Part shown: positions 10,155 to 40,385 of the stretch, in pieces | Position numbering within the stretch: the first letter of the stretch is position 1 | Layout of the letters: every line of letters begins with the position of its first letter | Origin: Candidatus Altimarinota bacterium | GTDB taxonomy: Bacteria; Patescibacteriota; Gracilibacteria; BD1-5; UBA6164 | Length of the DNA stretch: 64,000 bases | Reading direction: 5' to 3' | Assembly (NCBI GenBank): GCA_026988025.1 | Contig: JALSMB010000008.1 | Location: forward strand, 1,335-65,334 | Program-made: the position numbers and the translations under genes | Notes under the pieces: generated by a model | The model's input: the letters and a program-made list of their open reading frames with translations, nothing else | Told to the model about the DNA's origin: nothing | Database searches by the model: none

Positions 10155-10730
10155 ATGGAAGCATTTTTAAATGAGGTTGTAGATGGGGAAAAATTTGAAT
10201 TAACTATTGATACTAAAATTTTTAGTAAAGAAATAGTTTTAAAAACTGCTTATGTTTTTTTAGATAGATGATATTTCTTTTTTAAAATGGATAATAATTG
10301 AAATATAATTTTACAATTTACTAGAAAGGAAGAAAATAAAGAAGATCCTAAAAAAATAATTACTGATTTTGCTGACGAGTTATTATCTACATTATTAAGA
10401 GATACCCTTGAAAAGGATAATAAAGATATAAGAGAAAAAATTGTTTGAGCAGCTATAGCTAATAGCTTAGATTCAAATTGATTTACTTCTATTGATACTG
10501 ATAACATGTGAAATAATCAAGAAAATAATCAAATAGATTTTGATAAAGATATTGATGAAATATTAAAAGAAATAGAAAATGATCCTGAATTAAAAATAGA
10601 TGAGGAAGAAATAGAAAAGATACTTAGAGAGATAGAAGAAGAGACAGAGAATGAAATTGAAGAAATTAAACCCAATATTACAATAGATCCGGAGGCTGTA
10701 AAAAAAGCTAAAGAAAATTTTAAGAAATAG
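10155..10730 (+). CDS. hxsD: HxsD-like protein with an acidic C-terminal extension
   Basis: About 100-aa N-terminal domain with FADELLSTLLRDTLEKDNKDIREKI, resembling the LLNDYxLRE signature of His-Xaa-Ser system protein HxsD. Lies directly upstream of HxsB and HxsA. Confidence 0.55.
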
Positions 10731-10786
10731 AAAAAATATAATCTATTTCCTTTTTAAAAGGAATATATATAAGATAATAAAAAAAT

Positions 10787-10981
10787 ATGAAAAAAAAGTT
10801 TGAAATAAATATAGATATTTATTCTGAAGATATTATAAATCAAACAATTTGAGATTTTGAAGAAATATCTGAAATAAAATATACAGATAATAATTTAGAA
10901 ATACATTGAAGTTCTGAATCAGAAATTAATGAAATTTTTAATGAGTTTATGAATTATGTAATTTGATTAATTAACGAATAA
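10787..10981 (+). CDS. Small HxsD-like / hypothetical protein (64 aa)
   Basis: MKKKFEINIDIYSEDIINQTIGDFEEISEIKY...EINEIFNEFMNYVIGLINE. Same beta-then-helix layout as the preceding gene, and context only. Confidence 0.35.
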
Positions 10982-10987
10982 ATAAAA

Positions 10988-12469
10988 ATGTTAAATTTAG
11001 AAAAAATAAAATGATTAAATAAAAATACTGGTTTTTTTAGATTTAAACCATTTTGAAATGATTATTTAATTACTAATGATATAGCTAAACATGCTTTTTT
11101 AACTAAAAAAGAGTTTGGTGATTTTATTATGTGAAAAATAACTGAATGAGAAAAATATGAAGAATTATTAAATAGATGATTCATAAAAAATGATAAATAT
11201 AAAGCAAGCATGGCTTTGGCTTATGCTAAAAAAAATGAATTTTTATGATATGGACCTAGTCTTCATATAATTGTAACTACTTTAAGATGTAATCACAAGT
11301 GTCAATATTGTCATGCGGCTGTTGCTCCAATGTCAGCTAAAGAAATGGATATGACAGAGAAAACTGCAAAAAAAGTAGTTGATACTATTTTTTATACTTC
11401 TAATCCGAGTTTAACTATAGAATTTCAATGATGAGAAGCATTAGTTAATTGGAATGTTGTTAAATATATAGTAGAGTATGCAGAGACAAAAGCAGTTCAT
11501 TTGAAGAAAAATTTAAGTTTTGCTTTAGTTACAAATCTTACTTTGATGGATGATGAAAAACTAGATTATATTATTGATCATAATATATGATTATCGACAA
11601 GTCTTGATTGAGATGAAGAAACTCATAATTTTAATAGAACTTTTAAAGATTGAAATAGTTTCGAACAGGTGACTTATTGGATAAAAAAAATAAATAAAAG
11701 ATTTGAAGTAGAATGAATTAAGCAAAAAATATGAGCATTATTAACAGTTTCTAAAAGAACTCTATCAAAGTATAAAGAAGTTATTGATACTTATGTAGAG
11801 TTAGGACTTGATTGAATATTTTTAAGACCATTAAATCCTTATGGGTTTGCTGCTGCAGATTTAGAAAAGCTATGATATGAACCAGAAGAATTTATAGAGT
11901 TTTATAAAAAATCTATGGATTATATTATAGAACTTAATAAAAAATGAATAAAATTTAGAGAAGCTATGTCTTGAATATATTTATCTAAAATTTTAACTGA
12001 TAAAGATCCTAATTATCTTGATGAAAGAAGTCCCTGTTGAGCTTGTATTTGACAAGTAGCTTATAACTTTGATTGAAAAATATATTCATGTGATGAAGGA
12101 AGAATGCTTGGAAGAATGTGAGATGATAATTTTAAAATGTGAAAATTAGAAGAAACTTGAGAAGAAACATATAAAAAAATGATAGATTCTGAAACAACAA
12201 AAATTATGGTTCAAGCATCTACTCTTGATTGACTTCCATGATATAATGATAGTGTTTATAAACCATATATTTGAGTCTGTCCAATACATTCATATAAATC
12301 AACAGGTAATATAATTCCAAATTATTCTAAAGATGAAAAAAGAATATTAGGTCATAGTATACTTGATTATTTATTTGAAAATATTAGAATAGAAGAAAAT
12401 AAAAATATTTTTAAGGATTGGTTAGGTATGGGAGATAATTCTGTCACTAGTCAATGTGAATCAATTTAA
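10988..12469 (+). CDS. hxsB: Radical SAM/SPASM maturase, HxsB-like
   Basis: TTLRCNHKCQYCHA (CxxxCxxC), FQGGEALV, and C-terminal SPASM-type cysteines (SPCGACIGQVAYNFDGKIYSCDEGR ... IGVCPIHSY). Immediately precedes the His-Xaa-Ser repeat peptide. Confidence 0.75.
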
Positions 12470-12485
12470 TTTTTAATTTAATTAT

Positions 12486-13013
12486 ATGAGTGAAAAAAAG
12501 AAAAAACTTTTTCCAAAAATAAAGAAAAAGTTAAAGGGATTTATTGCTGATGAGAGTGGTAAGATAACAAAGAAAGATGCTCTAGGTTTGGCTGTATGAG
12601 CTATACTTTTTAGTTGAATTGAAGAAGTTAATGCTGCTGCTTGACATGCAAGTGGTAGTACTGTAACAGATTCTAGTATTTGAGCATCTTATTCTAGTGC
12701 TACACAACATTATAGTCAGACTTGATGTACAAATACTTCTCCTTGTAGTTCGGATCCAAGTATGTCAGATAGGTTGAAATGAGCTTCTGTAAATGCTTCA
12801 ACTTCATGTCAACATGCAAGTTGAATTGTTAACTGACATTATAGTTCTACACCTTCTTTAAATTCACCTACTACATATTATAAATGAGATTGAACTCATA
12901 TAAGTATGGATGCAACTCATGGTAGTCATGGTAGTCATGGTAGTCATGGTAGTCATGGTAGTCATGGTAGTCATGGTAGTCATGGTAGTCATGGTAGTGG
13001 TGGTTGGTGTTAA
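12486..13013 (+). CDS. hxsA: His-Xaa-Ser repeat protein (HxsA-like precursor), 175 aa
   Basis: Lys-rich N-terminus, one hydrophobic segment and a Ser/Thr/Cys-rich body with scattered HAS, HYS, HAS, HYS and HIS motifs. These are followed by nine HGS repeats and a terminal GGWC. Confidence 0.8.
12918..12998 (+). repeat. Perfect 9-bp tandem repeat catggtagt x9 (encodes His-Gly-Ser x9)
   Basis: Direct reading of 12918-12998. In frame with hxsA. Confidence 0.95.
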
Positions 13014-13035: not shown

Positions 13036-13734
13036 ATGAAGAAAAATATATTTATATTTATTATATTATTTTTTTTATGAATTAGTTTATATTTGAATTT
13101 TTTAGCTAAAAATAATATAGATACATGAAGTTTAGCTAAAAATAATATAGATACATGAAGTTTAGCTAAAAATAATATAGATACATGAAGTTTAGCTAAA
13201 AATAATATAGATACATGAAGTTTAGCTAAAAATAATATAGATACATGAAGTTTAGCTAAAAATAATATAGAAAGTATTATTGATGAATTTGATAAAATAA
13301 ATAATAAAAATAATTTTGATAAGTTTTTGAAAAAATATAATTGACAAAATTTACTATATACATTTTTAAGAGTTTGAAATAAAAAACTATTTTTAAAATT
13401 TCAAAAATATTCTTTTAAAAATAAAAACATATCATTAGAAAATTATGAAAATTATATGGGTAGAATCTTTGATAATTATAATTCTAAATGATATTTTAAT
13501 TGAAAATATATTAATAATTGAGAATATGATTATTTTTTAATATCTTTATTAAATAAAGATATTAAATTTAAGTTAAATTTATGTAATAAATGATTTAGTA
13601 ATGATATTGAAAGCTTAAATGCTTGTAAAAAATATTCACTATTTATGTCTTATGAAAATAATAATGATTGTAATAAAATGATGACATCTGTTGATAAAAA
13701 ATGGTGTATAGATACATTAAAATTAATAAACTAA
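13036..13734 (+). CDS. Secreted or membrane-anchored repeat protein (hypothetical)
   Basis: Signal-like N-terminus MKKNIFIFIILFFLGISLYLNF, then (LAKNNIDTGS) x5.7, then a Cys-containing C-terminal domain. Confidence 0.6.
13101..13270 (+). repeat. Perfect 30-bp tandem repeat, 5.7 copies (tttagctaaaaataatatagatacatgaag)
   Basis: Copies start at 13101, 13131, 13161, 13191 and 13221, with a partial copy at 13251. All are identical and in frame. Confidence 0.95.
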
Positions 13735-13740
13735 TATAAT

Positions 13741-15066
13741 ATGGATAATAATTTTGATACTAATTTTTATAATGATTTATCAGATTATATTGATAATGTT
13801 GATTATAGTTCTTATACTTTACAATATCCCCCTCCATTTATTTTAGAAAATAAATTTAATAATAAAGATTTTTTAGATTGATTTAAATTTACACAAAAAA
13901 AGGTATGAATATATATTCATATCCCTTTTTGTGATACAAAATGTACATTTTGTAGATATTATTCTATTATTGATTTTAAATTAGATACTTATTTTAAATA
14001 TGTTAATTATTTAATTAAAGAATTGGAAATTTATAAAAAAGTATTAGATACTAATAATATATTAATTGATACTATATATATATGATGAGGAACTCCTAGT
14101 ATTTTAGATGAAGTAAGTTTAGAAAAATTATTAAATTATATTTTTTTAAATATAAATTTAGATGATTCATATCAGTTTTGTTTCGAAGCAAATCCTAATA
14201 GTTTAAGTATAAAAAAGATAAAAATATTAAAAAAATATAATTGTAATAGATTAACTTTATGAATCCAGTCTTTAGATAGTAATGTATTAGAAAAGATAAA
14301 TAGAGTCCAATCTAAAAAAGATGTTATAAGATCAATTTATTATTGAAAAAAAATATGAATTGAATATATAAATGTCGATTTAATGTTATGAATTAAATGA
14401 CAAACGTATAAATCTTTTATTAATGATGTTAAAATTGTATCGTGATTAAAACCAGACATGATACATTTACATCCGTATACATCAACATGAAGAGTAATAG
14501 ATAATAAAAATTTCACATCAATTCGTGATGTTAAAATGAAAATGGAAAAAAATTGAACTTTATATTTAAAATCTAAATGATATTGAGATATAGAGTGAGA
14601 TGCATTATGATTCAATAATAATTCAAAAAATAAACAATTATTTAATGCTTTAAATTGATGAGAATATATATGAATTGGGGTATCTTCTGTATGATATAAT
14701 TCACTATTTAGAACTATAAATACTGATTCTTTAAATAATTATTATTCTTTTTTGGATAAATGAGCCCTCCCTGTTAAGTTTTGATCATTATTAACCAAAG
14801 AAGATAATATGATACAATATATTATTTATAATATAAGATATAATGAAATTTCAATAGGTAAATTTAATTCTATTTTTTGAGTTGATATACTTAAATATTT
14901 TAAAGAAGTTTTTTTATTATTAAAAGAAAAATGAATATTAGATATTATTAATAATAAAATTATTTTTTATTTTAAAACACCATATGAATACTCTGTATTT
15001 TCAAAATATTTTTATAGTAAGGAAATTTTATTAAAATCTAAAAAATTAATATATGAAAATAAATAA
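13741..15066 (+). CDS. HemN-like radical SAM protein (coproporphyrinogen-III oxidase family / class C rSAM methyltransferase-like)
   Basis: VGIYIHIPFCDTKCTFCRYY, IYIGGGTPS and NRLTLGIQSLD are the typical HemN/HemZ family blocks. Confidence 0.8.
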
Positions 15067-16723
15067 TAAATATGATTTAGTAGTTGCTTGATGATGACCT
15101 GGATGAGTAACCTCTGCTATAACTTTTAAAAAATTAAATCCAGAATCAAAAATATTAATTTTTGATATAAACTCATTTCCAAAACATAAAATATGAGAAG
15201 TTATACTTCCAGGGTCATTTATCATTTTAAGGAAATTATGATTATTAAAAGCTATAAAGGAGTACTGATTTTTGAGGAAAATGTGAGTTTATTACTATTG
15301 GTGAAAAAGTAAGGATAAATGATTTTTATTACCATCAAGTAGGCTAGAAGAAAAAAAATGAATATTTTATGATATGACTCCTGAAAATTATTCATATCAT
15401 GTAGAAAGATATCAATATGATAATATTTTAATTAAAGAAGCTATTAAGTTATGAATAGATTTCAAGCAAAATGTTAAAATTTGAGAAATTAATTATTTAG
15501 ATGATAATAATATTAATTATTTAGTTGTTAATAATGTAAAAATTAAAGCAGATTTTTATATTGATTCTACTTGAATTAATAAATGAATTATAACAAGTAA
15601 AATAAAAAAATTTAAAGAAAAAGATTTTTCATGAGATATATGTTATCATTGATATTTAGAATGAGCTAATTTTTTACATAATTTTAATTGATTAAAAAAA
15701 CGGGTTGCTACTACAGTTTGATCTTATTGAAATAAATGCTGGTTTTGGTATATACCAATTACAGAAAATATTGTTTCTGTATGAGTAGTATTTAAATCAT
15801 CTTGTAATAAGGATTTTGTTGAAATAAAAGATAAAGAAGAACTATTGATTAATGTTTTATGTAGTTTTACTAAAATTAAAAACGCAATTAAGGATGCTAA
15901 ATTTATAAATTATAAGTGATTAGAAAAAATAACTATTATTAAAAATTGGAACTGAATTTCTAATAAATTATGTTGAGATAATTGGATGTTAGTATGAGAT
16001 TCTGCTTTCTTTTCTGATCCAATTTTATCTGCATGAGTCACTATGGCTCATAAAACTTGATTTTTTGCTTGAACATTATTAAATAGTTATTTAAAGTCTG
16101 ATAGTAGTTCATATAAAAAATTATTATTAAAAACTTATGATTTGTATTGTAAAGATTTCTATTCTCAAGTATCAGATGTGATTAAATTTTGGTATGATTG
16201 AATGGACGAACAAAAAGATATTAATAGTCTATTTGATATATGAAAAGATACTATGAAAAAATTTGGTATTGTCGATAATGTATCATCTAGAAGCACATTT
16301 ATGTATGTAGTTAATTGATTATTTCAATCTATTGATACTTGATGAGATTATACTACTTTATATGAACAGGATGATTATGAAAACATAATAGAATGATTAA
16401 CATGAATTAATATTTCATTAAATGTTAATAATATTGATTGAAATGATGTATATGAATTTGTAAATGATTTTAATATAACGAAAAGGTTAAAATTAGATTG
16501 ATTTGATTTTAAATTAACTAAATTTTTACAAATTAAAAATATATATAATAGTTCATTTTTTATTAATGATTTTATATCTGATTTTGTTGATAATATTAAT
16601 TGAAATAATACTTTAAATGATATAATTACTATCTTAAAGTGAAAATATCATGATATTATTTTAGAAGATTTATACAAGATTATAAAAAAATTTATTCTTT
16701 TAAATTTAATTAAATGTATGTAA
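15053..16723 (+). CDS. Flavin-dependent halogenase (tryptophan-halogenase family)
   Basis: DLVVAGGGPGG (tga tga tga cct gga tga, 15089-15106), the WxWxIP motif as CWFWYIPI, and WMLVGDSAFFSDPILSAGV. Overlaps the upstream gene by 14 nt. Confidence 0.75.
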
Positions 16724-17217
16724 AAACTAATAAAAATGAATTATTAATTTTAAATAATTTTATTAATACTTTAAATGTTAATAAAATTTTAAATTATTTT
16801 TTTGAGAAAAAATTAGTGAATAAAAATACAGAGAAATATTCTTGTATGACTTATATTTTAAATAAAGAAGATTTATCTTTTTATTGAAATTTAATAGATA
16901 TAAGTAAAATATTGGATATTTTAAATTATAATTACTGAAAAAAATTTATTTTTTCATGAATATCTGAATATATTGAGATGAATAAATGAGATTTTTTACT
17001 TGAACATACTGATTGATTTCATGATTTTCAAGCAGTTTTATATTTATCTAATATAAATGAATTAGATTGATGAGAATTTATTATTGATAATTCATTATAC
17101 AATTTATTAGTGTGAGATATTGTAGTATTTAAATGAAAAAGGAGTCATTCAGTAAATTTAATAAAATGATGAAATAAAAGAATATCTATAAGTTTTTGAT
17201 TTAATAAAATAAACTAA
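16714..17217 (+). CDS. 2OG-Fe(II) oxygenase (prolyl-4-hydroxylase-like)
   Basis: LLEHTDGFHDFQAVLYLSN...GGEFII...GDIVVFKGKRSHSV...RISISF, giving an HxD...H...R facial-triad layout. Confidence 0.65.
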
Positions 17218-17222: not shown

Positions 17223-18374
17223 ATGAATAATATATGTTATACAATTAAATTGCATGAGTTATGTAATTATTGATGTTTATTTTGTTTCCAAAAACATGAA
17301 AATAGAGCTAATGCTGAAATAAAAGATAGGTTAGTTGTTTTTAATCTTATACTTAACGCTTATAAAAAATGATATAAATCTATAGAATTTACTTGAGGAG
17401 AACCTTTATTATCTAAAAATATATTTATATATCTAAAGTTTTCTAAAAAAATTGGTTTTAAGAATATTTTAATTAAAACTAATTGATATTTATTTTGAGA
17501 CTTAAATTTTGTTAATAATTGTATTTTATCTTGAATGACATCTTGCCATATTTCTATACATCATTATATATCAAAGAAACATGATTTTATTGTTTCTAAG
17601 GAATGAGCATTCTTTGAAACATTGAAATGAATTAGATATTTAAAAACTAAAAGATTACATTTATGATTACAAATAGTATTAAATAAAAATAATTATAAAG
17701 ATATAAAAGATATTATATTGTTTTTCTTAAATGAATGAATATTAGATTTTGTTATATTATTTCAAGAAATTGAATGAGAAGTTTATAATAATTTGAATGA
17801 TTTATTAATTTCTTATAATGAGGTTATCCCTTATTTATTAGATACTTTATCTTTATTTAATGGGATTAGCTGAAAGTATATAAAAATATTAAATTTTCCT
17901 TATTGTTTATTTCCATTAATCTATCACAAATATATAATTTCAGAAATCAATTTAACTGTCAATATCGAAGAGTGAGATATTAAATATATAAATAGAAAAA
18001 GAAATAGTAATTTAGCTTTAAATAAATGTAATAAATGTGATTTTTTTAAAAAATGTTCTTTAGTGGATATTAATTATTTAAATTTTTACTGAGAAGAAGA
18101 ATTTTGAAATAAAATATTATCTTCTAATTATAAAAATGAATTTAATATAATAGATATTTACATTAAATCTATAGTTAATTGAATATTTTATTCTAATATT
18201 AATGATTATATAGATTACGTTATATCTAAATTTTCATTTAGTGAATTTTATTTATATTTTCTTATTACTGATCAAAATAATACTTTATTTGAAGTTTTTA
18301 AGGATAACATAATTTTTGATGTTACTAGTTCAATTAATAAATTACATAACATTGGTATTATAAAATTAATATAA
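17223..18374 (+). CDS. Radical SAM protein (HxsC-like architecture)
   Basis: KLHELCNYGCLFCF, FTGGEPLL and a C-terminal CNKCDFFKKC (CxxCx5C). Frame verified open codon by codon. Confidence 0.8.
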
Positions 18375-18380: not shown

Positions 18381-19025
18381 ATGAATACTTTTGATATTAA
18401 TAGATTTAATAATGAATTTGTTTTAAATAATAATAGTGAAAATATTGTTAAGGTCTTATATTGGTCTAAAACAAAATATAATAATGAATTTGTTATTAAT
18501 AAGATTAGACCATTTTTAAATAATACTAATCTTTTATTATTTAAAAAGATTATAAAAATAATATGATTTAAAAAAATACATATTTGATTTGATTTATCTA
18601 GAAAAGTAGTAAAATTTTATATATGAATATATGATCTTTGAATTAAAGAATCTTTTAAATTAATTAATGATATTAGGTTAGTTTTATGAATAAATGAAGT
18701 TTATGAAATTGAAAAAAATTTTTTAAAATTTGATTGTTTATGATTTGATGTATTATGTAATAATATTGAGCTTAAGGTATATGAAATAGTTAAAGATAAA
18801 TTTATGTATGATGAAATCGAATTATTAAATATAGATGAAATAGATATAAAGGAAATTTGATTTTTAAAAAGTTTTTCATGAAGAAAAAAAATTTTTTTCA
18901 GATTTAATAAATTAATAGATATATCTATTTTTAATAATATATTTTCTATTTCGGAAGATAATATTAATAAAAAAGTAAAATATTATTGTGTAGAAAATAA
19001 TAAAAAAGAAATATATTTTATTTAG
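18381..19025 (+). CDS. Hypothetical protein
   Basis: 214-codon ORF under code 25, tightly packed in the cluster. Recurrent (V/L)K(F/V)Y strands, but no confident family. Confidence 0.45.
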
Positions 19026-19037: not shown

Positions 19038-19690
19038 ATGAAAAAACTTTCTTACTGGATAAATCCTAAGTATTTATATCCAGGAAATATTATAAAATAT
19101 AGAAAAGAATTTTATGCAAAAGAATTAGTTAAAATAATTAAATTAGATAATTTTTTTAATGACTATATTATAAATAGAATAATAACTGAATTAAAACAAA
19201 AAAAAGCAAAATTTGAGTTTAATGATTCATACGAAAATTGAGTTGTAGATGTAGATTTTTTTCTTATAAATCAGTTTTTTTAGAAGAATTTAAAATTTTT
19301 TTATGAAGTAATACCTTTCTAAAATTTATTTCATTATTTTTTTGAAGAGATGTAAGATACGTTAATAATAGAGATTTAATTAATAAATATTCAAAATGAT
19401 GAATTCTAATTCAAACATTAAATAATAACAATCATATAAAATGGCATGATGACATAGATGATCAATGAATGTATATATTATATTTAAATGAAAATTATAA
19501 TAAAAAAATGTGAGGATTCTTAGAACTTTGATATAAAAATGGAGATGATTATATATGTTATGATAGAATCTCACCAGAATTAAATACTTTAGTTCTATTT
19601 ATGCCAAAGAAAGATTTATATCACCAGGTATCTAATATTTCTTATTGATTTGAGAGAAAAAATATTGTTGAACATTTATATTTTAAATAA
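19038..19690 (+). pseudogene. 2OG-Fe(II) oxygenase interrupted by a frameshift at a poly-T tract
   Basis: Frame 0 runs 19038 to TAG 19279-19281. The frame-2 continuation is open from 19223 to TAA 19688-19690 and carries HIKWHDDID, GGFLELG, LVLFMP..LYHQV and RKNIVEHLYF. T8 (19255-19262) and T7 (19275-19281) runs lie in the overlap. Confidence 0.6.
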
Positions 19691-19695: not shown

Positions 19696-20322
19696 ATGTT
19701 AAGTAATAATTATAAATACATATGTAATTTATATTGATGAAATTGATTTTCTAATTTACCAAATAGTATAAATACTTTTGAAAGGGTAATATATATTTTT
19801 GAAAAAATAAGTTGTTATAACGATTTTGAACATTTCCGTAGGAATTTTCCACCTGAATGGATTTTTATTCCATCAATAAGATTGAAAAGAAAAGATTTAT
19901 GGGTATCTTTTTTTAAGTATATATATATATATCATAAAAAAAATGACATAAATTTTTTAATAAGATTAAAAGAAAAAGGTATTTTTTGATCAGAAGGATT
20001 TACTGAATATATGGAAAGTTTGTATTATAATATTTTAAAATGATGATTAGATTATGATGAAGATTCTGATCTTACAATTACTTTTTCTAAATATACTACT
20101 AAATATATAATAAAGAACTATTGTACATTTAAAAAAGTAGATTTATTTAATAAAAAAATAAATATTCATCCTGTTGAGATAAGATGAGTAATAAATAAAG
20201 TATTGTTTTATAGAGCAACAATAGAGAATAATTTTGCAGATAAAATGTTTGATGATTATCCTGAATGAAAAAATTCAAAAAGGTTAGCGAAAGATTTTTT
20301 AAAATATTACTATAAAAAATAA
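19696..20322 (+). CDS. Hypothetical protein
   Basis: 208-codon ORF under code 25. No recognisable motif. Confidence 0.45.
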
Positions 20323-29297: not shown

Positions 29298-29828
29298 ATG
29301 TTAGATGAGAAAGATTATAAATATAAAAAATTAATTCATTTTTTAAATTTATCAAAAGTAAACTTAATATGGTATATAAAAAATTCAAATAATATTATTA
29401 TATATAAAGATTATATTTATTTAAATGGTATTTATTTTTATTTGGATGACTTATACATAGAATGAAATAATGTTGATATATGGAATTACAAATGAAAAAC
29501 ATATTTTACTTATAATGCTGCTATTAGAGAAATAAATAAAATAGGAAAAAGACTTCTTTGAAAAAATGATTGGAAGAATTTAATTGATTTTTTACCAGGT
29601 AATATAGAGAATAAGATTATTTTTTTAAAGGATATTTTATGATTGTCTTTTTTTTGATTTAAATGCCGGGATAATTGATTTTATTGTAATTTTGGAAATG
29701 ATTGATGATATTGGTCTTTAGATTGTACTGAAACTCATGCTTATAATTTACATATAAGTAAAAATATTATAAATTTTAATGATTTAGAATTTAAAGATAT
29801 CTGATTTTTGGTTCGTTGTATAAAATAA
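29298..29828 (+). CDS. FISUMP-domain protein (Fibrobacter succinogenes major paralogous domain-like)
   Basis: YFTYNAAIREINKIGKRLLGKNDWKNLIDFL ... GGYWSLDCTETHAYNLHI ... GFLVRCIK, including the characteristic VRC-x-K ending. Confidence 0.55.
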
Positions 29829-30684: not shown

Positions 30685-30852
30685 ATGATTAATATAATAA
30701 AAAAAATAGTTTTGATAATTAAACAATATTTTTTTGTACCAATATTGATTTTGATATTATACCCAATATATATATTATTATTTTTTTTATTTAGAAAATA
30801 TTTTATATCTACAATAATTAAAGTATCATGAAATATAAAAAGAATGTATTAA
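30685..30852 (+). CDS. Small hydrophobic protein (55 aa)
   Basis: MINIIKKIVLIIKQYFFVPILILILYPIYILLFFLFRKYF. Overlaps the carbamoyltransferase start. Confidence 0.35.
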
Positions 30853-32549
30853 AAAAATATTATTTATGATTATCTTGTTTTTTTCATGATTCTTCAGTTT
30901 CATTTATTGATGAATCATGAAAAATCTTATATTCATCATTAGAAGAAAGATTTTCAAAAATAAAACACGATAGTTCATTTCCATATAAATCTTTAGAATA
31001 TTGATTTATATATCTTAATATTAATTTAAATGATATTAATGAAGTTTTTTTTTATGAAAAACCATTGTTAAGATTTTTTTTAGATTTAAAATCAATTTCT
31101 ATTTTTTACCCATTTAGTTTTTATTTCTTTTTTAATTTTTTAAGAAATTTTTTTAAAAATTATAATGAATTAAATTCATATTTTTGTAAATATAAATGAG
31201 AAATTAACTATATTGATCATCATATTTCTCATGCTAGTCTAAGTTATTATTTGTCAAATTTTTCTAACTCTTGAATTTTAGTAGTTGATTGAGTTTGAGA
31301 TAATTCAACAATTTCTTTATATGAATGAAATAAAAAAGAAATAACTTTATTAAATGAAGTATATTTCCCAAATTCAATTTGATTATTATATTCACTTTTT
31401 ACTATTTTTTGTTGATTTGAAGCTAATGAATGAGAATATAAAATGATGTGATTAGCTTCTTATTGAAAACCTATATATGTTGATAAAATCTATCTTTTAA
31501 TAAAGAATAATAATATAAATGAATTTGAATTAGATATAAGTTATTTTAATTTTTCATCATTTAAAAACCCATTTAAAAAGAAATTTATAAAATTATTTTG
31601 AATATGAAGGAAAAAAGGCTCTAATATTGATATATATTATAAGGATATAGCATCTAGTATCCAAAAAGTATTAGAAGATATAATTATTAAATATTTAATA
31701 ATTATTAAATATAAATATGATTTTAATAATATGTGTTTTTGATGATGAGTTTTTTTAAATTGTAAATTAAATAAAGAGATTTATGATAAAAATATTTTTA
31801 ATAATATTTTTATTCCACCTAACCCTTGAGATTGATGAAATAGTTTAGGAGCAGTTTTATATTGATTTAACAGTATAAATAATACAAATAAAAAGATATC
31901 GTATAGAAAAATAGATTATATATTTTGATGATATAATATTGATATTGAAGTTAATATTGATAGTAAAATAAGTAATTATAAATATGATAAATTTGATATA
32001 AATGATGATGAAGAGTATTTTTCAATAATTTTTAATTATTTAAAAAATGAAAAAATTGTTTCTTTAATACAATGAAGTGCTGAATTTTGACCAAGAGCTT
32101 TATGAAATAGAAGTATAATATCTTCACCATTTAATAGTGAGATGAAAGATAAATTAAATAAGATTAAATGAAGGGAATTCTTTAGACCTTTTGCTCCTGT
32201 TGTTTTAGATGAAGATTTTAATAATAATTTTATTTGAAATATAGATTCTCCATATATGATGTATTTAGATGAGTTAAAAAATAGTAAATTATCTGCTATT
32301 ACTCATGTTGATAATACAGCTAGAACACAGGTACTTAAAAGTAATAATAATAATAATAATTTTCTATATTTATTATTAAAATATTATAAAAAATATACAT
32401 GATTTTGAGTATTGCTTAATACCTCATTTAACATGTGATGAGAGGTAATGGTAAATAATATTGATGATGCATTATTTACGTTTAAAAGAACTAATATTTC
32501 TTTATTAGTTATAAATAAAGGTAATAAAATATATATATTATATAAATAA
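30828..32549 (+). CDS. Carbamoyltransferase (NodU/CmcH family)
   Basis: LGLSCFFHDSSVSFIDESGKILYSSLEERFSKIKHD, DHHISHASLSYY, VVDGVGDNST, EYKMMGLASYG, AEFGPRALGNRSII, KGREFFRPFAPVV, THVDNTARTQV and NTSFNMGGEVMV. Confidence 0.9.
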
Positions 32550-32562
32550 TTAATTTATTATT

Positions 32563-33591
32563 ATGAAAAATAAACTTTTTAAATTATTATTAATGGTTTT
32601 ATGAATATTGTTTGCTTTATTTATCTTTGAATTTTGATTAAGAGTTTTTTTTGTTAACTGAATTTTTAATGAAAATGAAATTATAAATGATTCAAATAAA
32701 AATATGAAACATAATTTCGAAAAATGATCAGCAGAAGATAGTTGAAAATATTATGAATATTTTTGAGAAGAAATATATTTTTGGTATGAAGATAAATATA
32801 AATATCTTCATACCAAATCAGATAAAAAAAATATAGCTATTATTTGAGATTCTGTTGCTCAATGAGATACTGGATGAATGTCCAATTTTAAATTCTCAAA
32901 AATTATTAATGATGAAAATTGAAAATTGAATATTTTAAATTATTCTAGATGATGACATAATATTTCACAAGAGTATGTTCAATATGAACAATTTATTAAA
33001 GAAAATGATAATATAGATACAGTTATATATATATATTATAATAATGATTTATATTTTTCTAATATGATTAATGGATCAATATATACTTCTCCAATAATAA
33101 TTGATAATAGTTCATGAGACTTAGTTATAGAATTAATAGGTAATGAAAAAATAGATGCTTTTTTATCACATTTTTATATATATAAATATATTGCTAAAAA
33201 ATATTCATTAATTTTTAAAAAATTTGTTAATATTAAAGATTATAGGAAAATATATTATAATAATACTTATGGATATGAGGATTATTTAATAAATAGATTT
33301 TTAATGTATGTTAAGGACATAAATAATAGTTGTAAAGATAGTTGAAAAAAGTTTATTATATTAATTTCACCTACTCCAAAATTAATTAATGTAAATAATA
33401 ATTTTGATAAATATTTTATGCAAGATAATAGAGTTTATAAAAAGTTAAAAGCAGCTTGAATTAATGTATATAATTTATATGATTATGATGTACATAAAAA
33501 AGACTATTTTATTGATAATTGTTGTCATTTAAATAAGAAATGACATATTTATTATTCTAATTTCATAAAAAACATAGTATGAAACCAATAA
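32563..33591 (+). CDS. SGNH/GDSL-type hydrolase or acyltransferase, membrane-anchored
   Basis: N-terminal TM helix, block I IAIIGDSVAQGDTG and block V IDNCCHLNKKGH (DxxH). Confidence 0.6.
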
Positions 33592-33728
33592 TTAAAGAAC
33601 TACTTTTATTTATAAAAGAAAAAAAATTAACATTTTTATATCCTTTTTTATTAATATTATTAATTTTAATAAGCATAGTTATAATTTGAGAAAATATTGC
33701 TCCTTCAATAGTACTTTATAGTTTTTAG
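33579..33728 (+). CDS. DUF5989-like small membrane protein
   Basis: MKPIIKELLLFIKEKKLTFLYPFLLILLILISIVIIGENIAPSIVLYSF has the pattern typical of the about 50-aa proteins that accompany carbamoyltransferase genes. Confidence 0.55.
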
Positions 33729-34420: not shown

Positions 34421-36061
34421 ATGTTAGATTTTTTATTAAAGTATATAAATAATGATTTGTTTATATGGAGTATAACCTGATATTGAATATTGATTTTATT
34501 TATATGACTTTGATTTTGATTTCTATTTATAAGAAAAGATTTATTTTTTTTTCTAAAAAAATATATATCTAAAAAAGATTTGGTATTAATATTTTTTTTA
34601 TTTGTATTTTCTTTAATTATAAGAGTCTATTTTTTGGATAATTCTCTTATAACAATGAATGATGAGTTTATGTATACTCAGCATGCAAGAGAGTTAATGG
34701 AAACTTGAAAAATATTATCACCTATTAGATCAGTTTGATGGAGTTTTTTGTTAGTATTTCCTTTTAGTATATTTTGAGTTTCAAGTTATATATGATTTTA
34801 TTTTTCAATATTTTTATGAAGTTTAACAGTAGTAATATTATATTTATTATTAAAAATAATTTTTGATAATAAAATTATTTCTTTTTATCCAGCATTATTA
34901 TTATCTATTTTGCCATTTCATGTATTTTGGTCTACTAAAATGGAAACAAATCTGTCATCACTTTTATTTATAGTAATAACAATATTATTTTTCATAATAT
35001 ATAGTCAAACTAAAAATATAAAAATATTTTATTTTACTATATTATTAACATTATTTTCTACAACTTTTAGATGAGAAAATATACCAGTATTAATATTATA
35101 TTTATTTTTATTAACAATAGTAAATTATAAACAAATATATTTAAATAAAAAGAATCTTTTTATATCTTTATTAACTTTTTTTATTTGAATAATAACTGTT
35201 TTACCTAATTATGTAAATCAATATAATTTTTCTACTTCTAAGGATTGGACATATTGAGAATGAAGTAATTTTTGATTAAATAATATTTTTTCTAATATAC
35301 ATTATTTTCTAAATTGATTTTTAAATAATAACTTATATTTTTATTATAATTATATAGTTATATTTTGAGTATTGCTTTTATTTTATAATTTATATTTTTG
35401 AGTTTTTAGAAAAATAAAGAAAGAAGTTTTTATTTTAATAACTCCTTTTGTTTTATTATTTTTTTTATATAATTTTATATGGTTAAAATATGTAGCACAA
35501 GAATCAAGATTATATATGGAAATTTATCCATTATATGGAATGTTTTTTTGATTTGCAGTATACAGTTTTATAACTTTTTTTAAAAATAATTTTATTAAAT
35601 ATTTAGTTACTTTTATTTTATTTCTACTTACTATTTGAAATTTATATAACACATATTGATATTCTAATAAATCAGATTATAAATATTTACAAACAATTGT
35701 TAGTAATACTTTTAATTATGATATTTATATAAAAAATAAAAAATGTATTTATATATTATATCAAAATACTTATTATACAGCATTTGTAGATATTCCATAT
35801 ACAAATATTTATGAGTTTTTATATAATAAAAAATTACAAAATGATATTTTAAATAAATTCAATTGTATAATATATATAAAAGATAAATTTGCTTTGGATG
35901 AATCTAGTTGAGAACATTTTTTTTGACCAGATTGAAATAAGTCAAATTTTTATTTTGATGAAGTAGAAAGTAATAATTTATTTAAATTTAGAGAAATAAA
36001 AATATATAAATATAATAATATTGAATATTGATTTTATAAATTAAGTAAAAATAATGACTAA
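34421..36061 (+). CDS. GT-C fold membrane glycosyltransferase (ArnT/PMT-like)
   Basis: More than 10 hydrophobic helices. The first loop RVYFLDNSLITMNDEFMYTQHAREL resembles GT-C acidic loop 1. Sits directly after the GT2 gene. Confidence 0.55.
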
Positions 36062-36587
36062 AAATAAAATAATAGAATTATTTGATAATGAAAAATATAA
36101 GGAGGTTTATAAATTAACTAATCCTTATAATAAAGATATTATTCTAGATTACGAGATATTATATTTTTTGAAATCAAAGTTAGTTTTAGATGATTTTAAG
36201 ATTAATAATAGTAATGAAATAAAAAAGATATTATTTTATTATTTTTATTTATTGTGAAAAATAAAATTTGAAAATAATTATAGTTTTTATTTTAAGAAGG
36301 AATTATTAAAACTTGATTTTAATAATTTAGAAAAGGATTTAAATTCATTAAAAGATTTCAAACAATATTTTGAATTGTGAAAAAATAAAGTATTTTTAAA
36401 TAAAATTATTGATAAAACTTTAAAAAATAATAATAAAATGGAATTTAGACAATGATCTAAAGAGGTTTATAATATTATTGATTTTTTTATAGAATTCACT
36501 AAAGAATGTTCTGAACTATATGCTTTTTCTTGAGAGCATTTTCCTTTATTTAAATGGCTTATTAATGAATTATCAGATGAAAAATAA
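36054..36587 (+). CDS. Hypothetical protein
   Basis: 177-codon ORF that overlaps both neighbours by 8-11 nt. Confidence 0.45.
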
Positions 36588-37845
36588 TATAGAAAGTAAA
36601 TTACAAAATAAATGAATAACAAAAGAGGATCTTGAAAAAAGAGATGAATTATTATCTTGAACTAAAGATAAAAAATCTCAAAATATTAGAAGTTGTTATG
36701 AAGTTATGGTACATAAATTATGCCAAGAAAAATGTTTTTTTTGTAGTCAGGATCATGCAAGTAGAATTACTGATGTTAAACCTGATGATTTAGATATTTA
36801 TAAAAGAATTTTGTTTTGAGTAAAAGAGTGATATTGAATGTTAGGTTTTACATGATGAGAACCTCTTATACATCAAAATATTATTAATTATATAAAATTT
36901 GCTTCTAAAGCATGATTTAAATTAGTTAGAATTCAAACTAATTGAGTTATGCTTTGAAATCCTTGATTTGCTAAAAAATGTGTTGATGCTTGAGCAACAC
37001 TTTTTAAGTTTTCTATACATCATTATAAATCAGAAATACACGATTATTTAGTATGACTACCATGAGCTTTAAAAAAAGTAGAATATTGAATAAAAGAATT
37101 AAGAAAACTTTGATGTAGAATGTGAATAAATATTGTACTTACAAAACAAAATTATAAAGATTTGCCTGAATTTTTATTACATTATTTAAATCTATGAATA
37201 TCTTCATTTGTAATTATTTTTCCACTTTACGAGAATAGTATGAAAGATGAAGCGGATGTAGTATGATTTAAATTTTCTGAATCTATTCCATATATAATAA
37301 AATCATTACATATATTTGATAAATTATGATTAAAAAGACCACTTGTTCTAAATTTACCAATGTGTTTACTACCTTGATATGAAAGTGCTATAATTCAGAC
37401 TTTTAATTGAACAGCAGTCTTAAATCTTGATTGATCAAAGACTAATATTGATGATAATAAGGCCTGATGAAAGAAGAGGGTAAAAATATGCTCTGATTGT
37501 GAGCATAATAAAATTTGTTTCGGTGTAGATGAAAAATACTTGGCTGTATTTTGAGAATGAGAATTTCAAGAAAAAAAGGAAAAATTAAATTTTAATTTTT
37601 CTTTAGAGGATTTAAAAATACAGAAGTATTTTTCTGATAATGAATTATGTTTAATTGAAATATTACAATATAAAAATAATTTAAAAATTAAAGATATAGC
37701 TGAATTAAAAGATAAATTTCAAATATGTAAAGATTGTGATAATATGGATAAAATTTGAGAAGTAGAAGAAAGTTTAGTAAAAAAATGAATTATTTTAGTG
37801 AAATGACAGTGATTAGAAAAGAAATATAGTTTAATTCCTAAATAA
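36577..37845 (+). CDS. Radical SAM protein (HxsC-like architecture) with a C-terminal extension
   Basis: VHKLCQEKCFFCSQDH, FTGGEPLI and CSDCEHNKICFG, followed by about 90 aa of helical tail containing ICKDCDN. Confidence 0.8.
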
Positions 37846-37864
37846 TATAATATTTTTTAGGAAT
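37834..37864. terminator. Hairpin between convergent genes (bidirectional terminator candidate)
   Basis: attcctaaa / tttaggaat 9-bp stem spanning both stop codons (37843-37845 on + and 37857-37859 on -). Confidence 0.45.
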
Positions 37865-39197
37865 AATTGAAAATATTTTTAATTATTTTAATTAAAAAGT
37901 TAAATATATTTTTGAAGATTTTATCTTGTAAGAAAAAAGTAATTAAAAATCATAGTAATATATAAGAAGCAAAAGAAAATGTATTTAGAATTTTTATAGT
38001 TATATTTTTTGTAAAATTAGTAGTTTTGTTGTTTATATGCCAACTATTTGTAATAGTAAATGATTTTTTAATAATCTTTAAAGTATTTTTATTAATAGGA
38101 TTTTTGATATTTTGGAAATAATTAGTTGGAGAGGGGGATAATATTTTTTTAGTATATTTTCTATTTTTATCTGGAATATGTCATAATCATATTTGATTTC
38201 AGAACATTTTTATTAAATATTCTTTATCTACCACAACACCTTCTTTTAAATCTTTTATATTAATATACTTATATTCAGCTATTCAAAATGTAATTTTATA
38301 AGAAAAAACTAAAATTTTGGTTATTAAATATATAGTTAAATAAATAGTAAAAATTTTAAATAAATAATTTTTAATTTCATTTGGATTTTGTAAATATTCA
38401 TAAATTATAAAACTAATCAAAAATATACTTAAAAATATAAGTAAAATATTTCAAATTAAATTAATATTTATTTTTAATTTTTTAGCTAAAAATTCTTTTA
38501 GTTTATTGATTCAAATTTTAAATAAATATAATCATCATATAAATATTAAAATAAATAAAATAATGATATAAATATTATATTTATCAATAATATTTTGTAA
38601 TATTTGCACTTTTCAAGTATTTGAATAAAGAATAGAATTTAATGAATATATTCTTATTAATCTTATACTTACAAAAATAAGTAAAAAAATAACTAACCAT
38701 TTTAATATTATTTTATAAGTATTTCATCATTTATTTCACTTATGAACTTTCCATTTTTCACTTAAATCTTGCTTTATATTTATCCATAAACTTTGTCTAT
38801 AATTTTTATTGAATAGAACTTTTCATAAATAAAAATATATAAAATATCAAAGTAAATATATTAAAGTAATTAATGCTATATTTCAGATAAAAGGTATTAT
38901 TCCCATATAAGGAATAAATAAAGCTAAGACAAGTAAATACTTAGCATCTCAAGCTGCCCAAATTCAAAAATAGTATAATACAAAACTAATTAAAAAAGTT
39001 AAAAATATTTGTCATACAAATAATAGATAATTAACTTCAGGAAAACTAAAAAAAATATAAATATAATAAAAAGGGATAAGTAATAGTAAATATCCTAAAT
39101 ATTTATTAGGAATTTTTTTAAATTTTAAATCTGAAACAACAATTTTATAATTTAAATATAAAAAGGGAAGAGTTAGTATGTATAAAATATATTGCAT
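37857..39197 (-). CDS. A24-family aspartic peptidase (prepilin-peptidase-like) with a long C-terminal membrane extension
   Basis: The minus-strand frame has no TAA or TAG from 39197 to 37860; I listed every tta/cta triplet. First Asp motif VVSDLKFKKIPN, second IWAAGDAKYLLVLALF, then about 290 further residues with more hydrophobic segments. Confidence 0.65.
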
Positions 39198-39248
39198 TTG
39201 TTTTTTGAAAGTATATAATTTATATAATTATATTTTAAATACTAGTTT

Positions 39249-40385
39249 ATGCAAAATTTAAAATACTATGTTTTATGAACAAGAAATTCATCACTTTTAA
39301 AAGAATATTTAGATAAATATTACAATAAGCTTATTTCTGATTTAGAAAATATAAAAAATCTCCCTTTCCCAAAGCGAGTACTCGAAGAATGAGGGGCGGG
39401 GGTTATAAAAAGTATAAATAATTTATTAAAAATAGAAAATAAAAACTTTATTTTAAATGCAGATATATCATCTTTAATTCAATCTATTATTTTAGAAAAT
39501 AATTTAGAATCTATAAGTAAATTAAAAAAAGAAATAAATATTTTTTTAGAAGAATGAATTGAATCAGAAAATCTTATTCAAAATAAATGACAAAAAATAG
39601 CTTGAACTAATATAAGATTAACATCAGATGATAATAATCCATACAATAAAATGGAAGCTCATCCAGATCATATAAACGAGTGAGCTGTATCTTGAAATTG
39701 GTGAGAAAAAACAGAAGAAGAGTGGTTAGAAGTATATGAAAAAACTTTCAATTTATTAAAAACTCTTGATGAGTGAGTTTTTGATGAATTAAATCAAATA
39801 ATTACAAAAATAATACCACTTGGAACTGCAAAGTGAATGCATAACTCAGCAAGTTATAAAGAATGTGTATGACATCTATATATGTGATATACTATAGATG
39901 CAGGAACTCCTGAAATAAATAACCTAGAAGCTATAATTCATGAATCAAGTCATAATAAATTAAATTTAATATTACAATTTGATCCAATAGTATTAAATGA
40001 TAAAAGTTTAAAATATTATTCAGCAATTAGGCCAGATGCTAGACATATTCATTGAGTATTTCTTGGTTATCACGCTTTTGCACCAACTATGTATATAGTT
40101 ATGAAAGCATATAAAGATTGACACTTATGAAATGATGAACATTGGCTTGAAAAGATAGTTTTATATCATATAAAAACTAAATTTTTACAAAAAGTTATAA
40201 AAAAATATGCAAAACTTACAGATTTATGAAAAGAGATAAGTGAAGAAATAGATTACGTTATTTCTAAAATGGATATTTTATTCAAAGAAATTAATCCAGA
40301 TAAAGAAATAATAAAAAGAGCAAAACAAAGACAAATAGAGCATTTTAATGAAGTAAATAGAAATTATCCACAATTGGAATATTAG
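39249..40385 (+). CDS. HExxH-motif peptide-modifying protein (mod_HExxH / aKG-HExxH hydroxylase-like)
   Basis: EAIIHESSHNKLN, followed by YYSAIRPDARHIHGVFLGYHAFAPT, in a 378-aa protein of the expected size. Confidence 0.6.

Follow-up and report, generated by a model that had tools for sequence, protein, structure and literature searches.

The window analyzed here is a stretch of 64,000 nucleotides from a Candidatus Altimarinota bacterium (GenBank assembly GCA_026988025.1, contig JALSMB010000008.1, positions 1,335 to 65,334), in which a block of about 30 genes at 10155-37845, all on the + strand, includes homologues of HxsD and HxsB and a putative substrate of the HxsA type, components of the His-Xaa-Ser (HXS) system. 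The block is probably a lineage-specific, greatly expanded HXS system that would mature an exported His/Ser/Thr-rich envelope protein. HxsB and HxsD score above their curated cut-offs, the putative substrate carries 14 H-x-S motifs, and the block contains five HxsC-like radical S-adenosylmethionine (rSAM) domains and about 20 further tailoring genes.

The HXS system was defined in silico by Haft (TIGR03976-03979). In 2026 it was described as an antiphage system in E. coli, where HxsB, HxsC and HxsD mature HxsA (Li et al., Nat Commun 2026, PMC13128918). Maturation there comprises processing at the N-terminus and, on an SHRSS motif, a mass change of +8 Da; HxsA has a signal peptide and a peptidoglycan-binding domain and stops phage DNA entry from the periplasm, and an HxsC-HxsD complex was proposed to present it (PMC13128918). 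In the published HxsA-based survey, 99.7% of systems fell in Pseudomonadota and 99.6% were ordered D-B-C-A (PMC13128918).

Genetic code, gene calls and survey of relatives

The GC content of the window is 21.3%, and long open reading frames (ORFs) are found only when TGA is read as a sense codon. The 26 TGA codons of the HxsB gene match Gly in homologues, the two Gly of the radical-SAM GGE motif among them, and the code is therefore table 25 (TGA = glycine). Database copies of the window proteins differ from the table-25 translations at TGA positions only, where they read Trp. The closest HxsB homologues all come from Candidatus Gracilibacteria metagenome-assembled genomes. Proteins were assigned to families with Pfam and NCBIfam profiles at curated cut-offs. 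Relatives were collected with a pattern derived from HxsB, which gave 245 loci in species-representative genomes; the best 80 were examined, ORFs being called with code 25 and compared against the window proteins. Surveyed related loci are designated by L-numbers (L001, L088 etc.).

An earlier note, made from the sequence of this DNA, had described about 29 genes on one strand at 10155-37845 with frequent overlaps and no internal terminator. Under table 25 the genes of the block do all lie on the + strand, with gaps across its 28 junctions of median 5 nt and maximum 56 nt, and the overlaps listed there (15053/15066, 16714/16723, 21100/21121, 26480/26496, 36577/36587) are all present. No terminator-like hairpin was found on the + strand between 9.5 and 48 kb with a scanner that requires at least 3 G-C pairs and is strict at 21% GC. 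Pfam and NCBIfam profiles matched nearly all of the gene inventory of that note and agreed with its rSAM count, giving 8 Radical_SAM genes with 10 domains and an intact CxxxCxxC in every domain.

HxsD, the HxsD-like protein and HxsB

The block begins with hxsD (10155..10730, +; 191 aa), which encodes an HxsD domain (TIGR03976, 59 bits, cut-off 50) followed by an acidic C-terminal tail, NQIDFDKDIDEILKEIENDPELKIDEEEIE, that is conserved across loci. The D-B-C-A locus of an Aeromonas plasmid was used as the canonical comparison locus, and its HxsD is 29% identical to the window protein over 83 aa. A second, small hxsD-like gene (10787..10981, +; 64 aa) reaches the NF038315 HxsD_rel model at 41.5 bits (cut-off 41), matches HxsD by hhalign with E = 1.6e-4, and has a counterpart between HxsD and HxsB in 55 loci (BLAST); the reading of two HxsD genes thus holds, each above the cut-off of its own family. 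It is followed by hxsB (10988..12469, +), a SPASM-type rSAM maturase whose identity is firm (TIGR03978, 501 bits, cut-off 370). HxsB is 36% identical to Aeromonas HxsB over 471 aa and 65-82% identical across Gracilibacteria.

The putative HxsA substrate and its proposed partner g04

The hxsA-type precursor gene (12486..13013, +) encodes 175 aa made up of a basic leader (KKKKLFPKIKKKLKGFIADESGKITKKD at the N-terminus), a hydrophobic segment, a core rich in Ser, Thr, Gly and His, the motif HASGIVNGHYSSTP, (HGS)9 and a C-terminal GGWC. The hydrophobic stretch is 13-14 residues long, ends in VNA-AAG and resembles a Sec-type signal or anchor. Composition of the core is Ser 25%, Gly 16%, His 11% and Thr 10%, with four Cys. 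The protein had been called HxsA in the earlier note, and the call stands in part: the H-x-S motifs, 14 in total including (HGS)9, support it, but TIGR03979 gave no match, and only the HxsA3 and HxsA4 models matched, at 38-39 bits against cut-offs of 55-65. The N-terminus resembles HxsA3 (NF038309) and the C-terminus HxsA4 (NF038313), which makes the protein a relative and not a member of these families. No second precursor-like ORF was found in the window, and HxsA is the only convincing substrate, as that note had it.

The HGS units are encoded by a 9-bp tandem repeat, CAT GGT AGT, at 12917..12998 (+; 9.1 copies, 100% matches by TRF). Its Gly codon is GGT, so the repeat is independent of the recoding. 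A near-identical contig has 3 HGS repeats. An alignment was made of 59 HxsA family members from other loci, in which the leader is nearly invariant, a Cys-x-HASGIVNGHYS-x-TP motif occurs in 41 of the 59, members have between 0 and 32 H-[GAS]-S motifs, and the last residue is usually aromatic (RW, QW or SY), the alternative ending being GGWC. HxsA proteins of relatives are 120-300 aa long, all with a Sec-like hydrophobic segment. A peptide product had been proposed; a 175-aa pre-protein with a Sec-like segment points instead to an exported protein and not to a small peptide natural product.

HxsA contains a possible A24-type cleavage site, KG/FIADE (the slash marks the cut), with an invariant Glu at +5, as in class III signals. 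Such signals, however, have Gly, Ala or Ser at -1 and a hydrophobic helix immediately following, whereas in HxsA the hydrophobic stretch begins about 17 residues later and position -1 is Gly in 39 of 59 members, Asn in 12 and Lys in 2. A prepilin-like cut of HxsA at this KG/F site by the A24 peptidase encoded next to the block is a weak lead, with Asn or Lys at -1 in 24% of the family.

Directly downstream lies g04 (13036..13734, +), predicted to be membrane-anchored, with five AKNNIDTGSL repeats (a perfect 30-bp repeat at 13101-13271 by TRF) and a C-terminal domain with four Cys. A paralogue of this C-terminal domain, g12 (19696..20322, +; hhalign 95%), is predicted to be cytoplasmic and has 49-52% identical homologues in L009, L094 and L095. 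A membrane-anchored partner is encoded beside HxsA in about half of the loci. The g04 family itself was found in 8 surveyed loci, which are exactly the 8 loci whose HxsA ends in GGWC, and in each of them the g04-type gene is directly downstream (Fisher's exact test, 4e-11, phylogeny not corrected for; the loci form at least 2 separate groups by HxsB identity). The co-occurrence suggests that the C-terminus of HxsA interacts specifically with g04, and it offers a concrete, testable protein-protein or protein-modification pairing.

Two further observations concern HxsA and the 5′ end of the locus. Three loci (L059 at 11466, L061 at 11466 and L070 at 6556) encode a second HxsA paralogue with a C-terminal Hint/intein-like domain (CFT...VHN), a fusion suggesting that some HxsA proteins are processed autoproteolytically. 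In L001 (1-4423, compared with window 10153-12953), a contig assembled from a different sample, the sequence matches the window at 100% identity from 13221 on. Its HxsD is 76% identical, its HGS and g04 repeats are fewer, and its upstream gene is g30-like in place of ATP synthase. This difference would stem from a hot spot of strain-level recombination at the 5′ end of the locus, or else from chimeric assembly.

HxsC-like and other radical SAM enzymes

HxsC is the best-scoring family of four rSAM proteins of the block, g08, g19, g21 and g27, all of which fall below its cut-off (79-196 bits against 267.9). Canonical HxsC is 21-26% identical to g19 (N-terminal half), g08, g27 and g21, and its first ~110 residues are missing in all four. 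The two-domain protein g19 (27382..29292, +) scores highest on TIGR03977 (196 bits with its two domains summed, cut-off 267.9), and its N-terminal half is 25% identical to canonical HxsC over 286 aa. The C-terminal half aligns to the whole HxsC4 model (NF038332) at 162 bits, the cut-off being 500, and is likewise a relative, not a member. Orthologues of g19 are 72-80% identical. On these sequence comparisons g19 would be the best candidate for HxsC in the block.

The remaining HxsC-like proteins are shorter. In g08 (17223..18374, +; TIGR03977 as best family with 96 bits, cut-off 268) the CxxxCxxC motif is accompanied by a C-terminal CxxCx5C. The adjacent g09 (18381..19025, +), its putative accessory protein, matched no Pfam or NCBIfam family; in L094 and L095 homologues of g08 and g09 are fused in a single protein of 611-614 aa. 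g21 (29843..30682, +) scores 103 bits on TIGR03977 and has orthologues 65-75% identical. g27 (36577..37845, +), 422 aa from a start corrected to 36577, scores 79 bits and has orthologues of about 420 aa that are 55-82% identical. None of the four adjoins HxsB; g19, g08, g21 and g27 all lie apart from it. A 177-aa protein without a family match, g26 (36054..36587, +), travels with the HxsC-like genes: its homologues (43-75% identical) adjoin g19 or g27 orthologues in L085, L088, L089, L091 and L093. It was considered as another HxsD-type chaperone and rejected, the hhalign probability against HxsD being 0.1-0.2%.

Three other rSAM genes complete the set. g05 (13741..15066, +) is HemN-like (Radical_SAM, 83 bits), with STM4012, HemN, HemW and ChuW as best NCBIfam matches, each sub-cut-off, and has a 54% identical homologue in L094. 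g14 (21100..22827, +) is a two-domain PapB/HxsB-like protein with two Radical_SAM stretches, two CxxxCxxC motifs, and scores of 156 bits on PapB and 128 bits on HxsB. g15 (22829..24082, +) is divergent (Radical_SAM, 35 bits), with CxxxCxxC at residue 95 and a 63% identical homologue in L009.

Conservation of the locus in Gracilibacteria

Almost all of the best 80 of the 245 HxsB loci belong to Gracilibacteria or unclassified Patescibacteria. HxsD is just upstream of HxsB in 70 of 79 loci, and the HxsD-like ORF and HxsA follow the same pattern; atpD or atpC lies within four ORFs upstream in 16 loci, as in the window. About 80 species of Gracilibacteria have HxsD, the HxsD-like protein, HxsB and HxsA followed by a varying rSAM set, in many cases immediately downstream of the ATP synthase operon. 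Downstream content varies by genome and is dominated by HxsC-like, SPASM-type and HemN-like rSAM genes. Where downstream sequence extended for 9 kb or more (53 loci), 1-10 rSAM ORFs (median 5) were counted within 10 kb. The density of rSAM genes, which had seemed remarkable, is not exceptional in Gracilibacteria, whose Hxs loci as a rule have several of them.

In GCA_028691535.1, whose HxsB is 77% identical, the whole locus sits between the same flanks, atpC and rpoD, and spans ~23 kb compared with 30 kb in the window. The order is atp operon, HxsD, HxsD-like, HxsB, HxsA, g04, SPASM rSAM, g08, g09, g12, g13, g14, g15, g17, g18, g26, g19, g20, YcaO, g21, g27, class-V aminotransferase, A24 (-), HExxH, g30-like and rpoD (-). 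HxsB, g19, g21 and g27 are 73-77% identical between the two genomes, comparable to rpoD at 75%; less conserved are HxsA (46%), g04 (34%), A24 (45%) and g30 (33%). Elsewhere the HemN-like gene, 2-oxoglutarate (2OG) oxygenases, g08/g09, g12, g14, g15, g20-YcaO, g21, g26, g27, TPR, A24 and HExxH recur in shuffled order, and L094 has homologues of the HemN-like gene, of g07 and of an intact g10/11. Only the halogenase and the carbamoyl/glycosyl module are without counterparts in the close relatives examined.

The block had been taken to be inherited as a unit, which scattering of its genes in relatives would speak against. Most of its families recur beside HxsB/HxsA, and in one relative the locus is preserved in full between the same flanks, so scattering was for the most part not seen and inheritance of the block as a unit around the Hxs genes is supported; one genome does split the locus in two.

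Two observations were made on other loci. Around HxsB of L064 (OZ245768.1, 9485-14294) there are about ten small ORFs, mostly between HxsB and HxsA; they were considered as extra precursors and rejected, as they resemble toxin-antitoxin pairs (by eye HepT/MNT-like, HicA/HicB-like and DUF4160-like). Three separate HxsB loci were found in each of two genomes, CAYFPB010000001.1 (L010, L067, L072) and BAAFHK01 (L031, L062, L079), and the Hxs system appears by sequence to be multi-copy in part of Gracilibacteria.

Other tailoring genes and flanks

The earlier note had assigned a halogenase, three 2OG oxygenases, a YcaO protein, two TPR proteins and a FISUMP protein to the block. The halogenase assignment was borne out: g06 (15053..16723, +) scores 78 bits on Trp_halogenase (cut-off 21), 137 bits on CmlS, 74 on LodB and 54 on QhpG, and has GGGPGG (GxGxxG), FPKHKIGE (the Lys-containing FPxxxIGE) and WFWYIP (WxWxIP), the motifs of flavin-dependent halogenases. 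A homologue was found in L070 only among the relatives examined. An alternative role for g06 as an LodB/QhpG-type Trp hydroxylase, forming a Cys-Trp quinone at GGWC, is disfavored by the halogenase WxWxIP motif and the lack of co-occurrence with GGWC in relatives.

The three 2OG-Fe(II) oxygenase genes are all there, the second with a frameshift. g07 (16714..17217, +) has an HTD motif and scores 26.5 bits on 2OG-FeII_Oxy_3, just under the cut-off of 27, and g13 (20324..21121, +) scores 34 bits on the same model and has a 60% identical homologue in L009. In g10/g11 (19038..19690, +) a frameshift at a T7 run interrupts the reading frame; with the two parts joined, the product reaches 36 bits on 2OG-FeII_Oxy_4, and L094 has an intact copy. 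This frameshift, near 19270 (T7 runs at 19264-19283), is identical in L001, an independent contig, and could mean a pseudogene, phase variation or a sequencing error common to both.

The YcaO call is secure for g16 (24099..25328, +), with 170 bits on PF02624, 145 bits on TIGR00702 (cut-off 76), and 146 bits, sub-cut-off, on the McrA-thioamidation YcaO model. Its homologues inside related Hxs loci are 53-57% identical. Outside the lineage the nearest are YcaO-TPR fusions (~580 aa), which also account for the more distant homologues, and the YcaO of methanogen McrA-glycine thioamidation. Fusion to TPR fits with the window, where YcaO is followed by two TPR genes, g17 (25339-26496, +; weak TPR matches) and g18 (26480-27367, +; TPR_17, 28.7 bits), which were correctly listed and have 49-76% identical homologues in L009, L093 and L090. 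Of the partners known for YcaO enzymes (E1-like/Ocin-ThiF, dehydrogenase, TfuA), none is among the family matches of the block; the conserved neighbors of YcaO are instead a FISUMP-like protein and TPR proteins. The former, g20 (29298..29828, +, its start corrected to about 29298), does not bear out the FISUMP label itself (TIGR02145, 16 bits against a cut-off of 41.65, E = 0.014), and is better described as a partner of YcaO, its homologue being directly upstream of YcaO in L093, L094 and L095. Near YcaO, between the g21 and g27 homologues, L093 (13341-14558) and L094 (12787-14004) encode a class-V aminotransferase (cysteine desulfurase-like), which could be a sulfur source for Fe-S clusters or thioamide formation; it has no counterpart inside the block of the window.

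Both flanking enzymes named in the earlier note are above their family cut-offs. g28 (37857..39197, -), an atypically long A24-family aspartic peptidase of 446 aa (Peptidase_A24, 34.6 bits, cut-off 26.5; DLKFKKIP and AAGDAK motifs), contains no methyltransferase domain and has homologues in 14 Hxs-linked loci. g29 (39249..40385, +) is an aKG-HExxH-type peptide beta-hydroxylase (TIGR04267, 60 bits, cut-off 40) with HESSH at residue 231; homologues are present in 11 Hxs-linked loci, the one in L085 being divergently oriented beside HxsD. Next to it g30 (40454..42613, +) encodes a large secreted protein without a family match, with homologues near Hxs genes in 15 loci; g30-type genes sometimes lie between A24 and HExxH. 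This protein could be a second target or a surface partner, its membership in the system being uncertain.

The carbamoyl/glycosyl module

A module at 30685..33728 (+), followed by two glycosyltransferase genes, lies between g21 and g26. It consists of a small membrane ORF (30685-30852, +), a carbamoyltransferase (30828-32549, +; Carbam_trans_N 189 bits, Carbam_trans_C 177 bits), an SGNH-like protein (32563-33591, +; GDS, NND and DxxxH motifs, Lipase_GDSL_2 E = 0.12) and a DUF5989-like ORF (33579-33728, +; 24.6 bits, cut-off 27). The first and last of these are small membrane ORFs absent from the list of the earlier note. They are followed by a GT2 (33737-34417, +; Glycos_transf_2, 96 bits) and a GT-C/PMT_2 protein (34421-36061, +; PMT_2, 41 bits), whose closest NCBIfam names are polyprenyl-phosphate sugar transferases, e.g. 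PgfS and ArnC. A carbamoyltransferase/SGNH/GT2/GT-C module is therefore present as first read for both carbamoyltransferase domains, GT2 and PMT_2, while the SGNH assignment depends on motifs and the weak GDSL match.

Carbamoyltransferase homologues were found in 6 other Hxs loci; the GT2/GT-C pair has no counterpart in any related locus fetched. In L088, g19, g21, g26, g27 and A24 are contiguous and the g21 and g26 homologues adjoin with no module between them; because of this arrangement the module is an insertion relative to the backbone. A glycosylated or carbamoylated product, as had been proposed, is plausible but is the least secure part of that proposal, the module being missing from the close relatives examined.

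Comparison with known systems

In HxsB and HxsD, both above their curated cut-offs, the block contains true members of the HXS families known from E. coli, Klebsiella and other Pseudomonadota, and it shares with HXS a target that has His-Xaa-Ser repeats and an N-terminal export-type segment, HxsC-type rSAM enzymes with a second, C-terminal Cys cluster motif, and co-directional genes. The B and D components and the logic are thus those of HXS, and the block departs from it in HxsC, in HxsA homology, in the peptidoglycan-binding domain and in gene order. HXS has 4 genes, whereas the window has ~30, with an extra HxsD-like protein and about 20 tailoring genes; in place of HxsC there are five divergent HxsC-like domains that lack the canonical N-terminal domain. 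Repeats of HxsA are Arg-rich in HXS, and here they are HGS repeats preceded by a long conserved basic leader. The D-B-C-A order of HXS contrasts with D-D'-B-A...C, with ~14 kb of other genes before g19. HXS is carried on plasmids or islands and the window locus is at a fixed chromosomal site; the host, unlike HXS hosts, is a code-25 bacterium of the candidate phyla radiation, probably with no periplasm.

Among other systems, PapB ranthipeptides, SCIFF and QhpD provide the next-best models for HxsB and g14, far below the cut-offs of those families. An aKG-HExxH hydroxylase is linked in the window as it is, in fused form, in triceptide/cyclophane clusters, and enzymes of this type hydroxylate His and Asp of rSAM-cross-linked peptides, some of them cleaving backbones (PMC12636437). 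The window differs from rSAM/SPASM peptide clusters in having an exported protein of 175 aa as substrate and many rSAM paralogues together. The modified peptide had been called undescribed, a label that no longer applies to the HXS core, characterized in 2026 (PMC13128918), nor to the families with NCBIfam models (HxsD-like, HxsA3, HxsA4, HxsC4). No publication was found on the HxsD_rel, HxsA3, HxsA4 or HxsC4 variants, their accessory genes or Gracilibacteria loci, and a literature search on Gracilibacteria with radical SAM or with peptides synthesized by the ribosome and modified after translation (RiPPs) gave nothing relevant.

Proposed maturation of HxsA and alternative explanations

In the proposed mechanism, acidic HxsD (tail DFDKDIDEILKEIENDPELKIDEEE) and the HxsD-like protein would bind the basic HxsA leader, FPKIKKKLKGFIADESGKITKKDALG, and present HxsA to HxsB and the HxsC-like enzymes, which may install radical cross-links or carbon insertions at Cys-x-HASGIVNGHYS and the HGS repeats. 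The Ser/Thr/His/Cys-rich core may be decorated by the HemN-like rSAM, by hydroxylases of the 2OG and HExxH types, by the halogenase, and by YcaO together with its partners, the FISUMP-like and TPR proteins. HxsA would then be exported via its Sec-like hydrophobic segment and trimmed, perhaps by the linked A24 peptidase; glycosylation outside the membrane by GT2/GT-C and O-carbamoylation of a hydroxyl are possible further steps. The protein would stay at the envelope, perhaps held by Cys-rich g04 via its C-terminal Trp-Cys, and by analogy with E. coli HXS it may act there as an envelope barrier against phage. Conserved enzymes, a fast-evolving, repeat-bearing product and changing enzyme sets together suggest that the product is surface-exposed and diversifying. 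Phage protection is the most economical guess for its function.

Several points weigh against an expanded HXS system of this kind. Every step past gene identification is inferred. No HxsC-like protein reaches the HxsC cut-off, the canonical N-terminal ~110 residues being missing in each. No sequence similarity between HxsA and canonical HxsA was detected (E = 3). HxsA also has no peptidoglycan-binding domain, Pfam giving only a spurious sub-threshold collagen match, and its repeats have none of the Arg that was invoked to explain how the E. coli protein binds DNA; for these reasons the antiphage analogy may not carry over. The fixed chromosomal site and housekeeping-level enzyme conservation are unlike a typical mobile defence island. 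The carbamoyltransferase/SGNH-like/DUF5989/GT2/GT-C module is missing from the close relatives examined, and one genome has HExxH, HxsD, HxsD-like, HxsB ... g26, g19 (L085) ~28 kb from g21-rSAM-g27 with A24 nearby (L084). Differences in repeat number come from short-read assemblies and may in part be artefacts.

The split genome also bears on a different account, unlikely overall but deserving of weight, in which the block is composite, combining a compact Hxs core (HxsD, HxsD-like, HxsB, HxsA, g26, g19) with separate modules that have only an insertion-tolerant site in common: YcaO/FISUMP-like/TPR, g21-g27-A24, and a carbamoyltransferase/GT2/GT-C envelope-glycan cassette, with glycans, lipids or other proteins as targets. 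The compact core of L085 with g21/g27/A24 homologues ~28 kb off in L084 speaks for this account, and so do the contiguous g19-g21-g26-g27 of L088 without carbamoyl/glycosyl genes, the shuffling of gene order among relatives and the tolerated toxin-antitoxin insertions inside the L064 locus. The carbamoyltransferase and DUF5989 resemble a self-contained module, which also occurs outside Gracilibacteria, and glycans or lipids are the usual targets of GT2/GT-C pairs. A composite is harder to reconcile with the recurrence of the same accessory families beside HxsB/HxsA in many divergent genomes, with carbamoyltransferase homologues in several other Hxs loci, with the failure to find another precursor-like ORF in the window, and with the uninterrupted packing of the block, with its small gaps and overlaps.

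The enzymes themselves (SPASM rSAMs, YcaO, halogenase, HExxH, HemN-like) are typical of RiPP clusters, and the N-terminus of HxsA is leader-like and conserved, its core variable; peptidases are linked too, in A24 and in the HExxH type, some enzymes of which cleave backbones (PMC12636437). It is nevertheless quite improbable that the locus is a classical RiPP cluster whose HxsA is cleaved to a small cross-linked secreted peptide, an antimicrobial or a signal for an epibiotic or predatory lifestyle. Pfam and NCBIfam scans of the block found neither an ABC exporter nor a C39 peptidase nor an immunity gene, HxsA has a Sec-like segment and 120-300 aa in all relatives, a membrane-anchored partner adjoins it in about half of the loci, an antibiotic locus would not usually be conserved throughout a lineage at one fixed chromosomal site, and the characterized E. 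coli homologue is a cell-bound protein (PMC13128918). Very improbable, in our estimate, is a housekeeping role outside defence, with matured HxsA as an envelope metal-binding or redox protein (a His-rich metal store or chaperone, or the carrier of a peptide-derived quinone-type cofactor made from the C-terminal Trp-Cys). Such a role would suit the constant placement of the locus behind the ATP synthase operon in many genomes, enzymes about as conserved as rpoD, the His-rich (HGS)n array with no basic residues, the conserved C-terminal aromatic residue of HxsA, and the resemblance of g06 to LodB, GoxB and QhpG and of HxsB to QhpD, maturases of Cys-Trp quinone cofactors. HGS copies ranging from 0 to 32 and a highly variable core would be odd for a cofactor or a defined metal site, though, g06 has the halogenase-type WxWxIP and is missing from nearly all relatives, GGWC-type ones included, and accessory enzyme sets differ between species.

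A bolder form of the expanded HXS system that we favor is possible, though we hold it only tentatively: a 'super-HXS' locus of Gracilibacteria in which rSAM enzymes under housekeeping-level constraint, five HxsC paralogue domains among them, would build an as yet unseen envelope protein with HGS repeats, cross-linked, hydroxylated and possibly thioamidated, halogenated, carbamoylated and glycosylated. Its variable core, its repeat number and the enzymes acting on it would diversify between strains in answer to phage or to host contact. Were this true, it would represent a new class of enzyme-sculpted surface protein, not a defence add-on or an antibiotic, and HXS would be far commoner outside Pseudomonadota than the 99.7% of the published survey implies. 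That survey probably missed a large reservoir in the candidate phyla radiation because it searched with HxsA. About 2-3% of the genome, roughly 1 Mb in size (records of 1.08 and 1.18 Mb), is given over to the locus, and for this reason, together with the rpoD-level conservation of its enzymes, it is probably important to these uncultured, host-dependent bacteria. The chemistry of HXS is unsolved, mapping in E. coli being limited to the +8 Da change, and dozens of natural variants, in which HxsC-type enzymes occur split, fused or duplicated and HxsA has anywhere from 0 to 32 H-x-S motifs, should help to assign reactions to enzymes.

Sequence scans and the ATP synthase operon

Rfam and tRNA scans of the window found nothing, and a promoter scan was uninformative at 21% GC (261 sites against 256 expected from shuffled sequence). 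PADLOC (2023), which is without HXS models, returned only generic rSAM similarity to prokaryotic viperins, which was discounted. A foreign origin of the lower-GC segments was considered and rejected; GC follows the level of conservation, with the highest GC in the most conserved genes. Upstream of the block, in the atp operon, a 504-aa ORF at 2970-4484 (+) consists of about six tandem ATP synthase c-subunit hairpins. Fused multi-hairpin c subunits are known in a few archaea and would be unusual for bacteria. Orthologues of the window ORF are 901 aa long in JAQUZB010000004.1 (L009) and 146 aa in JAAXTY010000001.1 (L003).

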